Positions 32,957 through 36,100 of a stretch of 37,026 bases of DNA are shown here, piece after piece. The stretch is from a bacterium. Its GTDB lineage: Bacteria; Babelota; Babeliae; Babelales; JAUWHS01. The stretch is from NCBI GenBank assembly GCA_030605785.1, contig JAUWHS010000089.1:1-37026 (forward strand), given 5' to 3'. The notes beneath the pieces were generated by a model, which searched no databases, was not told where the DNA came from, and saw nothing but the letters and a program-made list of their open reading frames with translations. How positions within the stretch are numbered: position 1 is the first letter of the stretch; each line of letters opens with the position of its first letter. Made by a program: the position numbers and the translations under genes.

Positions 32957-35900
32957 ATGTATACAAAATCCAAGTTTTTAAAATATATACCATTATTATT
33001 GATTTGCTTAAATTTATTTGCGCAAAAACCATTAGAAATAGAAGTTACAACTGAAAAAGAATTAAAAATAGAAAAGTTAAAAGAAATAATACAATCCAAT
33101 CCACAAACTGTTGATTTAAGCAACAAAGGGATCACAAAGGAAATACTTGAAAAAATTATTCCTGATTTAAAACAGTGCAGGGTTTTAAATTTAAGGAGCA
33201 ACCAACTTGAATCTTTACCGGAATCAATTGGTAATTTAATAAATCTTAACAAGCTCTGGCTCGGCGAAAACCAACTTGAATCTTTGCCGGAATCAATTGG
33301 TAATTTAATAAATCTCAACAATCTCAACCTCCCCGAGAACCAACTTACATCTTTACCGGAATCAATTGGCAATTTAAAAACCCTTGAATGGCTCCGGCTC
33401 GACAAAAACCGACTTCCATCTTTGCCGGAATCAATTGGTAATCTAACAAAACTAATAAAAATCCAACTCGACAACCAAAAAACAAACAATAAAGAAACCA
33501 TAATCCAAATACCAAAATCATTAGATAAAAAGGAATTAGAAATTGAAGGCAATTATAAATTTATTGTCCCTGAAAACCAAAAACCAACAGCAAATATTGT
33601 AATTCTTTTAGACAGAGAAGATCAAAGACCTAAATCTAAAAAACAAGACGCCACACAAAATGATATGGATGTCGCAATTAACAATATAACTCCAATTTTA
33701 GTATCCGGCCAAATCCTTAAAAATTATCTTGAAAGAAAAAAGGAGATTCCTGACATATATGAAATTTTTAAATTAAACAATAGTGATTTGTATTTACTAC
33801 TTCCAAGAGGAATTTCTTTTAAAAACGCCTTTAATTTAGAAAATGCAACCGAAACATCAGTGAAAAAATTAAACGATTCATTGAATAATTGGCCTAATGA
33901 TAAGGGATATTACAACAGTGACAATTGGCTTGAGGGAATAAAATCAATCTTCAAAAGAGGTACTGTTTATTGGTGGAATATTGTTTTGATGGGACATGGA
34001 AGCTTAGAGAAATGGATTGCGGGTTTATCATCTGAAGACTTCAAAGGACTCATCGGATTTTTGAATTCTTCAGATCTAAATATTTTTCTCTTTTTTTATG
34101 ATACATGCTTTGGTGGAGGATCTACATTAGTTAACATATATAAAACAATGAAGGAATCTATTGCTGACATCCTCCCACTTAAATTTATGGTAATTTCCGG
34201 AACCACAAGAGAACGGAGTTCACATTCTATATTTACCGATTTCTCGGATTTATTTAATAAATTACAAAATCTATTAAATTTTGAAAAATTAAATAAGGAA
34301 CAACAAGAAAAAATAGGTTCTGACCCAATTGACGCTTTATTAAAAATAATTAAAAAAAATGTAATTGATCAAAACTTAACAATAGATATTCCTTTGATAA
34401 AATTTCCAAACACCCAATTTTTCATATCTGTAAGAAAAGATACACGAGTAAAAGTTATCAACAACGTGTTGGTCAAAAAACATCAACTGGAAAAAACACC
34501 AATAGAAATAGATGAGAAAATTAAAGCAATATTTGTGTACCCAAATATCATAGATGTACCAATTAATATAAAAGGATCAAGGATTCCTCAAATTGTGTCT
34601 CTAGATCCGGGAGCAACAGTTCATTGCTTCTCAAAAATAAAAACCAAAAACTCGCACAACAAATTAATACAAAATCTTTTCTCCGCAAAGAAAGAAAAAC
34701 CAGAATGGAAAGAAAAAGGAAAAATATTCATAGTAAAAGAATTAATAAATGGAAGTGATGAATACATAGATGTTGTAGTTAACTCCGAAAGCAATGTCGC
34801 TTTTTATAAAAAATATAATTTTTTTTACAAAATGCAAGACGAATCAGAAACATTCATTAAGGAAGATGTATTTAAAAAAGAGATTACTAAAATACTGCAA
34901 AAAAATATAAATTTATATTATAAAAATTTTCCCGATGAAGAAATAACTTACATTCCGGTTGCGCCATGGAAGACAGATCCAAATAAATTAATTAATTATA
35001 TAAACAAGAAACTTAATATCACAATTCTAACTGAAGAAGAATTAAAAATAGAAAAGTTGAGAAAAATAATACAAAACAATCCGATAAAAGTTTATCTTGG
35101 CAACGAAAGGATCACAAGGAAAATACTTGAAAAAATTATTCCTGAGCTGGAACAATGTGAATTCTTAGATCTTTCTTTTAACAAATTATCATCTCTTCCT
35201 GACAGTATTGGCAATCTTAAAAATCTTACAAGGCTATATCTCCGGTACAACAAACTCACAGAACTTCCTGACAGTATTGGCAACCTTAAAGGACTTCAAG
35301 AACTAAGTCTCTGGAGCAACAAACTCTCATCTATTCCTGAAAGTATTGGTGTGATTACAAATCTTCAAGAGCTAAGTCTCTCGAACAACAAGCTCTCATC
35401 TCTTCCTGAAAGCATTGGCAATCTTACAAATCTTCAAACGCTAGATCTCGCTATGAACAATCTCTCATCTCTTCCTAACAGCATTGGCAATCTTACAAAT
35501 CTTACAACGCTATATCTAAACAATAACCAACTTACATTACTCCCTGAAAATATTGGCGATATTACAAACCTTACAATACTAGAGCTCCAGTACAACAAAC
35601 TCACAGAACTTCCTGAAAGTATTGGCAACCTAAAAAATCTTATAAGGCTAAACCTCCCACACAATCAACTCACAAAACTTCCTGGCAGCATTAGCAATCT
35701 TAAAAATCTTAAATATTTATCTCTCTCACACAATCAATTCACAGAACTTACTGAAAATATTGGCAATCTTACAAATCTTAAATATTTACCTCTCTCACAC
35801 AATCAACTAACAAAACTTCCTGAAAGTATTGGCAATCTTCCAAGTCTTCAAGAACTGAATCTCCAGGGAAACAATCTCTCATCTCTTCCTAAAAGCATCA

Positions 35901-36100
35901 CAAAGCTTACAAATCTTCAAACGCTAGTTCTCGGACAAAACACAGATGAAAATGGCAAAGAAATTAAAGTGAAAATACCTAAAACATTAGATCGAAAAGG
36001 ATTAACAATTTATGGTGATTATGAATTTATTGGTCCGAAAGAACTCAAAGCTGCTGTGGAAATAGACGAGGATGATAAAGACGTTATGGAAATAGATTAA
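32957..36100 (+). CDS. Secreted LRR - caspase-like (clan CD-type His/Cys) putative protease - LRR protein, 1047 aa
   Basis: Signal peptide MYTKSKFLKYIPLLLICLNLFA, RBS aaaaggagaaataaATG. Four N-terminal and about 12 C-terminal 23-aa LRRs (LxxLxLxxNxLxxLPESIGNLxN). The central region has WWNIVLMGHGS (His codon 33995-33997), then 37 residues later NIFLFFYDTCFGGGS (Cys codon 34106-34108). Confidence 0.8.
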   Translation: MYTKSKFLKYIPLLLICLNLFAQKPLEIEVTTEKELKIEKLKEIIQSNPQTVDLSNKGITKEILEKIIPDLKQCRVLNLRSNQLESLPESIGNLINLNKLWLGENQLESLPESIGNLINLNNLNLPENQLTSLPESIGNLKTLEWLRLDKNRLPSLPESIGNLTKLIKIQLDNQKTNNKETIIQIPKSLDKKELEIEGNYKFIVPENQKPTANIVILLDREDQRPKSKKQDATQNDMDVAINNITPILVSGQILKNYLERKKEIPDIYEIFKLNNSDLYLLLPRGISFKNAFNLENATETSVKKLNDSLNNWPNDKGYYNSDNWLEGIKSIFKRGTVYWWNIVLMGHGSLEKWIAGLSSEDFKGLIGFLNSSDLNIFLFFYDTCFGGGSTLVNIYKTMKESIADILPLKFMVISGTTRERSSHSIFTDFSDLFNKLQNLLNFEKLNKEQQEKIGSDPIDALLKIIKKNVIDQNLTIDIPLIKFPNTQFFISVRKDTRVKVINNVLVKKHQLEKTPIEIDEKIKAIFVYPNIIDVPINIKGSRIPQIVSLDPGATVHCFSKIKTKNSHNKLIQNLFSAKKEKPEWKEKGKIFIVKELINGSDEYIDVVVNSESNVAFYKKYNFFYKMQDESETFIKEDVFKKEITKILQKNINLYYKNFPDEEITYIPVAPWKTDPNKLINYINKKLNITILTEEELKIEKLRKIIQNNPIKVYLGNERITRKILEKIIPELEQCEFLDLSFNKLSSLPDSIGNLKNLTRLYLRYNKLTELPDSIGNLKGLQELSLWSNKLSSIPESIGVITNLQELSLSNNKLSSLPESIGNLTNLQTLDLAMNNLSSLPNSIGNLTNLTTLYLNNNQLTLLPENIGDITNLTILELQYNKLTELPESIGNLKNLIRLNLPHNQLTKLPGSISNLKNLKYLSLSHNQFTELTENIGNLTNLKYLPLSHNQLTKLPESIGNLPSLQELNLQGNNLSSLPKSITKLTNLQTLVLGQNTDENGKEIKVKIPKTLDRKGLTIYGDYEFIGPKELKAAVEIDEDDKDVMEID
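33176..33475 (+). repeat. 69-bp periodic coding repeats (N-terminal LRR block, 4 units)
   Basis: Near-identical units ...aaccaacttgaatctttaccggaatcaattggtaatttaataaatct... encode NQLESLPESIGNLINL. Confidence 0.9.
35156..35938 (+). repeat. 69-bp periodic coding repeats (C-terminal LRR block, about 11 full units plus a cap)
   Basis: Recurrent ...cttcctgaaagtattggcaatcttacaaatctt... encodes LPESIGNLTNL with 23-aa periodicity. Confidence 0.9.

Follow-up and report, generated by a model that had tools for sequence, protein, structure and literature searches.

Hydrolysis is the default outcome of catalysis in clan CD of the cysteine peptidases, with GPI transamidase PIGK and the plant legumain-type ligases as examples of transpeptidation or ligation, and bacterial proteins of family C14 in this clan are often fused to repeat modules. 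The Dependentiae/Babeliales are widespread and almost uncultured, and what is known of how they manipulate hosts amounts mostly to catalogues of ankyrin and other repeat proteins. Dependentiae are known only as obligate intracellular parasites of protists, and published genome analyses describe Sec/type II secretion in them along with numerous repeat proteins that bear signal peptides and are thought to reach the host (PMC4378268, PMC6561590, PMC4776705). Here we analysed a 37,026-nucleotide stretch of a Babeliales genome, hereafter the window (contig JAUWHS010000089.1, positions 1 to 37,026, assembly GCA_030605785.1; G+C ~31% across its whole length). An open reading frame (ORF) with an ATG start at 32957..36100 (+) encodes a 1047-residue protein, in which a core of ~510 residues (about residues 190-700) lies between two blocks of leucine-rich repeats (LRRs). 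We consider it fairly likely that this gene specifies a Sec-exported, host-directed clan CD cysteine peptidase effector of the Babeliales (Dependentiae), with LRRs that would recruit its targets.

The initial annotation had described a secreted protein with an LRR/protease-like core/LRR layout, and this description is borne out: the 1047-residue chain carries 4 and 11 full 23-residue LRRs on the two sides of the core, behind a signal-like N-terminus. The elements of the gene are as follows.

32937..32956, + strand: ribosome-binding region, read from the sequence, with an AAAGGAG Shine-Dalgarno motif 6 nt before the ATG.
32957..33022, + strand: predicted Sec signal peptide, residues 1-22 (MYTKSKFLKYIPLLLICLNLFA, cleavage before Gln23), from inspection and a hydropathy heuristic.
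33047..33580, + strand: N-terminal LRR module, residues ~31-208, from regular-expression and Pfam LRR matches and a 69-bp array.
33581..34456, + strand: predicted caspase/legumain-fold (clan CD-like) domain, residues ~209-500, C-terminal boundary approximate, from the AlphaFold (AF2) model and Foldseek.
33992..34000, + strand: Gly346-His347-Gly348, with the predicted catalytic His in an H-G motif, from invariance and its place at a modelled strand end.
34106..34108, + strand: Cys384 (codon TGC), predicted catalytic nucleophile, from conservation, the model and the hhalign register.
34457..35032, + strand: beta-rich C-terminal domain of the core with terminal helices, residues ~501-692, from family profile coverage and the confident model.
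35033..36046, + strand: C-terminal LRR module, residues ~693-1030, from regular-expression and Pfam LRR matches and a 69-bp array.
36047..36100, + strand: short acidic tail (KAAVEIDEDDKDVMEID) and TAA stop, from the translation.

The case for a catalytic core begins with two residues, His347 and Cys384, which lie 37 residues apart. The initial annotation had placed each at the end of a hydrophobic strand, as they are found in both sequence and model. His347 (codon CAT, 33995-33997) lies in WWNIVLMGHGS, directly after the strand YWWNIVLM; Cys384, within NIFLFFYDTCFGGGS, lies in the loop just after the strand NIFLFFYD, inside [ST]-C-x-[GA]-G-G, and its local motif in the target is FYDTCFGGG (D-T-C-F-G). 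Across the family the pattern reads W-N-I-Y-L-x-G-H-G ... [LF]-x-Y-x-[ST]-C-[YF]-[GA]-G-G. When 62 members, each 19-50% identical to the query, are aligned with MAFFT, G346, H347, G348 and C384 are the sole invariant columns; on this alignment evidence, the His347/Cys384 pattern is not due to chance. Deeper sampling agrees. Among the best 150 relatives, the Cys column holds Cys in all 148 aligned sequences and the His column holds His in 129 of 130; in a 114-sequence profile alignment, C384 is present in 114 of 114, H347 in 99% and each flanking Gly in 98% of 112. These four positions are the most conserved of that alignment, and the next polar residue, His556, reaches 79%. Conservation of the dyad in homologues had been set in advance as a point on which the protease interpretation could fail, and it held.

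The residue two positions before the Cys (Cys-2), which lines S1 in caspases (Gln) and in legumain (Glu), behaves very differently from the dyad. In the target it is Asp382 (34100-34102), and in the best 150 sequences it is S (39), D (15), T (12), L (12), N (11), Q (11) or V (10), a variability hinting at diversified cleavage specificity within the family.

Structure prediction points to the same clan. With the 62-sequence alignment, AlphaFold gave a model with a predicted local distance difference test score (pLDDT) of 89.7 and a predicted template modelling score (pTM) of 0.90; a first model built from three sequences had reached a pLDDT of 68.7. In the domain numbering of the confident model, the strand 150-157 leads to His158 (= His347), a helix spans 170-180, and the strand 186-193 is followed two residues on by Cys195 (= Cys384). 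The His precedes the Cys, the H-G motif sits at a strand end and the Cys lies just past the next strand; this arrangement of strand-His, one helix and strand-x-Cys is the layout that defines clan CD. In a Foldseek search of the PDB, ranks 1-18 are all clan CD peptidases (legumain, caspase-7, -1 and -9, and PIGK). Legumain 4n6o is the best match (E 4e-3, prob 0.97), and caspase-7 4hqr has the highest TM score among the fold matches (0.48, normalized by the target); MALT1 lies lower in the list, and a SAVED-CHAT protein stands at rank 32 (prob 0.10). The alignments cover ~300 columns, corresponding to the N-terminal half of the core only. The fold comparison had likewise been named beforehand as a possible refutation; its outcome, a confident model and 18 clan CD top matches with modest statistics, gives moderate support. 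We regard the core as a probable caspase/legumain-fold (clan CD) cysteine protease domain.

The beta-rich C-terminal half of the core (~501-692) is covered by the family profile in many members and has no significant fold match in the PDB or in the viral structure library BFVD, where the core model as a whole also found no meaningful match. It contains His556 (34622-34624) in the motif S-M-x-P-G-x-x-x-H-x-F, a residue that 79% of relatives retain and that hardly varies across an 18-sequence alignment.

Sequence profiles give no family assignment. The core (residues ~190-700) has no Pfam or NCBIfam match, and hidden Markov model (HMM) searches of PDB sequences and PADLOC found nothing relevant for it. 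The target has no match to C13 (PF01650) or C14 (PF00656) at E<=10, none to VWA, and none to C11 clostripain, CHAT, C25 gingipain or C80 Pfam profiles at E<=1. None of these, and no peptidase domain of any kind, is among the 25 most frequently matched of the 74 Pfam families found in the 62 members at E<=10. The Q-A-C-x-G pentapeptide of C14 is also absent, its place being taken by D-T-C-F-G in the target and [ST]-C-x-[GA]-G-G in the family. C80 structures are missing from the top 50 fold matches. We found no description of the core family in Dependentiae genome papers or in a full-text literature search, which is not proof of absence.

The initial annotation had treated the architecture as a singleton, which is right for one part of the protein and wrong for another: the second LRR module is seen in the target alone among the homologues scanned, and the core belongs to a family of at least 751 clusters. 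A word-indexed search returned two homologues, 48% and 40% identical, both from Babeliales-type metagenome-assembled genomes (MAGs) and both with the H-G and DTCxGGG motifs kept; repeated with an 18-sequence core alignment, it gave only two already known proteins among the matches listed. An exhaustive HMMER search with an alignment of those homologues recovered 751 representative clusters at E<=1e-3, 290 of them at E<=1e-10. Most family members consist of a signal peptide and the core only, or of one repeat module and the core. Among the 62 domain-scanned members, 12 carry ankyrin repeats and 3-4 carry LRRs; DUF4116 also occurs, and one member has a ubiquitin-interaction motif. A signal-peptide-like N-terminus was found in 102 of 145 Met-starting representatives (~70%) by the hydropathy heuristic. 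The window contains no second copy of the core.

Family loci were located with a degenerate DNA pattern for WNIYLxGHG, each match being checked by the family HMM, and members were recovered mainly from Dependentiae/TM6/Babeliales MAGs. One TM6 MAG contig, CAMATL010000001.1 (locus L016), carries three tandem paralogues on the + strand (2-1672, 1945-3990 and 3994-6084), indicating local gene amplification of the core family at the level of sequence. A few member-carrying MAGs are labelled Chlamydiia, Tatlockia, Acidobacteria or Pseudomonadota. Labels of this kind attach to several MAGs with family members or a Babeliales-like MnmE: CAYHBO010000021.1 (L107), CAZGPI010000009.1 (L010), L018, L003 and L008. 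The 'Pseudomonadota' of L107 looks like a mislabelled Dependentiae genome, and because at least this label appears wrong, it is doubtful whether the family extends beyond the phylum.

Both repeat blocks are LRRs of the type LxxLxLxxNxLxxLPxxIGxLxx, with tandem repeats of exactly 23 residues and matches to the Pfam profiles LRR_14 (9e-62), LRR_4 (2e-46) and LRR_8 (4e-44). The N-terminal module comprises a helical N-cap (31-73), four 23-residue LRRs (74-165) and a degenerate repeat with a C-cap (166-208); the C-terminal module has an N-cap, eleven 23-residue LRRs (734-986) and a degenerate repeat with a C-cap. The underlying DNA repeats in tandem with a 69-bp period, 3.6 times at 33200-33450 and 10.7 times at 35180-35920. 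Minus-strand ORFs at 32926-33552, 35092-35283 and 35434-35664 (63-208 aa) have repetitive translations and lie exactly over the LRR arrays; we rejected them as shadow ORFs. The two modules are 49-51% identical with caps included, and both C-caps follow 'IPK[ST]LD+K.L.I.G.Y.FI.P'. The likeness extends to the helical N-caps and the C-caps. The modules are paralogous by sequence, and the C-terminal module is therefore an internal duplication that later expanded. Neither the three closest homologues nor the 62 domain-scanned members have a second, C-terminal module; in the closest homologue (P0001), the chain of signal peptide, LRRs and core stops after the core.

Put together, these elements suggest how the protein might act. 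It would be exported by Sec, its N-terminus (MYTKSKFLKYIPLLLICLNLFA followed by QK) offering a basic n-region, an 11-residue hydrophobic core and an LFA-Q site. His347 would serve as the general base and Cys384 as the nucleophile, each after one of two consecutive hydrophobic beta-strands, with the family-specific beta-rich domain behind the catalytic domain. The two paralogous LRR solenoids could act as protein-binding exosites, as the ankyrin modules may in relatives, and a target, most likely a host protein, would thereby be brought to the active site for limited proteolysis. The initial annotation had offered two suggestions for the role of such a protein. That of a host-targeting effector fits the Babeliales genome, the signal peptide and the ankyrin/LRR fusions of relatives; that of a ligand-gated immune sensor found no support, since the protein has no NTPase domain, no match in the defence library and no conserved neighbourhood, and is predicted to be exported. 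The effector reading is favoured because of the Babeliales genome, the signal peptide and the repeat fusions, set against the lack of a defence context.

Several observations weigh against this reading. The fold scores are modest: the best E is 4e-3 and none is <=1e-3, TM scores are 0.43-0.48 by target, and root-mean-square deviations are 8-12 A. The poorer, three-sequence model placed VWA domains first and caspase-4 only 7th. No sequence profile ties the core to any peptidase family (Pfam to E<=10, NCBIfam and PDB HMMs); the clan CD assignment proposed by the initial annotation is supported by the predicted fold and the conserved dyad. Alignments of the family with hhalign are non-significant against caspase-3, legumain and a legumain profile (P 0.04-0.05): the profile of the N-terminal half gave P=0.037 with caspase-3 and P=0.05 with a vertebrate legumain profile, which was shallow, consisting among the matches listed only of vertebrate orthologues with >=84% identity. 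The legumain sequence used was 100% identical to a database legumain, and the single best local alignment, at these non-significant P values, pairs His347 and Cys384 with the catalytic residues of both enzymes. The signal peptide calls, for the target and for the family, were made by eye and with a hydropathy heuristic, not with a dedicated predictor. Specificity, finally, is unpredictable, because the S1-lining Cys-2 position is so variable.

The same fold and dyad would also serve a self-processing module like the C80 domains, which after export would cleave itself, perhaps in response to a host signal, and free one or both LRR modules as the effectors proper. Clan CD enzymes (caspases, legumain, C11, C80) commonly autoprocess, and a protease set between two independent binding modules is suggestive in this respect. 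Most relatives, however, are a signal peptide plus core or one module plus core, often with little to release, and C80 appears neither among the top 50 fold matches nor in Pfam; self-processing is moreover compatible with cleavage in trans as well, and we judge this explanation unlikely. We think it distinctly unlikely that the His/Cys site catalyses another acyl transfer, be it transpeptidation or ligation, or the addition of a protein modifier to host targets or its removal from them. The default of the clan, hydrolysis, counts against it, as does the lack of detectable C13 sequence similarity and of identified partner subunits or acceptor-binding features; in its favour, the best fold matches include PIGK and legumain, one family member carries the ubiquitin-interaction motif, and Dependentiae encode many ubiquitin-system mimics (PMC4378268).

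Still less probable is a core without catalysis, a VWA-like or dead caspase-fold alpha/beta adaptor in a protein that serves only as a scaffold for binding, as other LRR effectors do. Such a scaffold would agree with the absence of any peptidase profile match and with the prominence of VWA, which is best for the low-quality model and falls to a low rank for the good one. Yet the sole invariant polar residues are a His and a Cys at canonical clan CD positions, a signature of catalysis, and the confident model gives clan CD a prob of 0.97 against <=0.30 for VWA. Strand 1 is followed by LLDREDQ with no DxSxS of a metal ion-dependent adhesion site (MIDAS), and the MIDAS positions, the downstream Thr and Asp included, are absent from the 45 most conserved columns; given this, the low quality of the first model and the low VWA prob with the confident one, the VWA reading was discounted. 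That the protein is a ligand-gated protease serving bacterial immunity or abortive infection, its LRRs acting as sensors, we regard as highly improbable. This reading would draw on architectural analogy only, together with SAVED-CHAT at fold rank 32, and is opposed by the absence of NTPase, SAVED, TPR or other signalling domains from the Pfam scan, by the absence of a meaningful PADLOC match, by the predicted export signal, by housekeeping neighbours (an aldolase, a LOG-family protein and a P-type ATPase) that are not conserved between loci, and by the concentration of the family in the reduced genomes of obligate intracellular bacteria.

The rest of the window agrees with a Babeliales origin. 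Its MnmE is closest (70% identity) to that of the MAG that also encodes the target's nearest homologue, followed by relatives from Candidatus Babeliales (58-60%) and then from Candidatus Dependentiae and TM6 genomes, which marks the window as a chromosomal contig of a Babeliales (Dependentiae) bacterium; GroEL is too conserved to inform the placement. Housekeeping neighbours include GroEL, ClpB, MnmE, a Na+/H+ exchanger, tRNA-Gly, a DeoC-type aldolase, a LOG-family protein and a P-type ATPase; effector-like neighbours are an ankyrin plus LRR protein and a pair of large proteins, both of which contain three PF12248 domains. The following features accompany the LRR-protease gene.

13916-14977, - strand: 353-aa protein with a Peptidase_C39_2-like domain (E 3e-14), between ClpB and MnmE, from a domain match.
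17259-17333, - strand: tRNA-Gly(GCC), the sole RNA gene detected in the window.
22247-24664, + strand: ankyrin plus LRR protein, 805 aa, effector-like.
24718-27474 and 28129-31083, - strand: paralogous large proteins of 918 and 984 aa, three PF12248 domains each, from domain matches.
36113-37024, + strand: N-terminal part of a P-type cation-transporting ATPase, running off the window end, from sequence reading.

The LRR-protease gene shares a 120-bp divergent intergenic region with the DeoC-type aldolase gene (31943-32836, -). The P-type ATPase gene starts 13 nt past the stop codon of the LRR-protease gene, and from this arrangement the two may be co-transcribed. The 805-aa ankyrin/LRR protein has LRRs 39% identical over 79 aa to those of the target's closest homologue and lacks the caspase-like core. 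The PF12248 domain we take to be of the farnesoic acid O-methyltransferase type (Methyltransf_FA), an arthropod-type domain, here in a Babeliales genome; the protein at 28129-31083 (-) has a hydrophobic N-terminus and a Lys/Glu-rich tail. The locus of the nearest homologue has no neighbours in common with the window. The absence of a conserved neighbourhood, together with tandem paralogues in another genome, fits a stand-alone, diversifying effector gene.

It is possible, if somewhat short of probable, that the core represents a new clan CD family missed by the Pfam and NCBIfam collections searched, the enzyme concealed within a sizeable share of the Dependentiae 'ankyrin/LRR repeat proteins' and part of a diversifying secreted-protease toolkit. 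If so, interchangeable repeat modules would choose the host target and the variable Cys-2 residue would tune cleavage specificity, and with its two LRR exosites the target could clamp a pair of host proteins at the active site, or bridge them there. Should the core be active, a family of at least 751 clusters would gain a testable function, repeat-directed limited proteolysis of host proteins, and clan CD would gain a bacterial family with the distinctive motif G-H-G ... [ST]-C-x-[GA]-G-G, a further conserved domain and unusual fusions to LRRs and ankyrin repeats. A family profile would also fill a gap in annotation pipelines. The finding would extend known principles, namely clan CD chemistry and LRR-enzyme effectors, and overturns none.

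Among described systems, legumain and PIGK (C13, PF01650) are the nearest in structure, with 4n6o, 4awb, 7fqi and 8imy_K as the best structural matches. They share with the target the order strand-H-G ... strand-x-C, with His before Cys, and an extra C-terminal domain after the catalytic domain. The initial annotation had likened the spacing of the dyad to the roughly 40 residues of legumain, a fair comparison in that the 37 residues here stand against 41 in legumain and 42 in caspase-3. The non-significant hhalign alignment places His347/Cys384 on His148/Cys189 of legumain. The differences are that sequence-profile similarity is not detectable, that the Cys-2 residue is Glu in legumain whereas it is Asp in the target and variable in the family, that the C-terminal domain of the target is beta-rich whereas the legumain prodomain is helical, and that the target is bacterial and fused to LRRs, or in its family to ankyrin repeats or LRRs.

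Caspases, metacaspases, paracaspases and orthocaspases (C14, PF00656) resemble the target in fold, with caspase-7, -1, -9, -3 and -8 and MALT1 among the matches, and in the order of the dyad, with Cys384 set on Cys163 of caspase-3 by hhalign (again at a non-significant P). In contrast to C14, the target model has a ~100-residue insertion between strand 2 and the His strand, and its family has a conserved C-terminal domain of its own. The C80 domains of MARTX and large clostridial toxins offer a parallel in setting, a clan CD fold inside a large secreted multidomain bacterial protein acting in a eukaryotic host; unlike in C80, no inositol hexakisphosphate (InsP6)-binding features were identified in the target. 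The LRR-enzyme effectors, namely the IpaH/SspH NEL ligases and Xanthomonas XopL, XopAC and XopAE, likewise combine target recognition by LRRs with a catalytic domain in an exported protein, and the NCBIfam models for XopAE, XopAC, XopL and SspH2 pick up the LRRs of the target, through the repeats only and far below the cut-offs. Their catalytic domains are E3 ligase or Fic domains, whereas that of the target is clan-CD-like, and they use type III secretion, as opposed to the predicted Sec signal peptide here. The target thus shows the features of the clan yet matches the profile of no family examined (C13, C14, C11, CHAT or C80), and we therefore rate it as a new family and architecture within the known clan CD.

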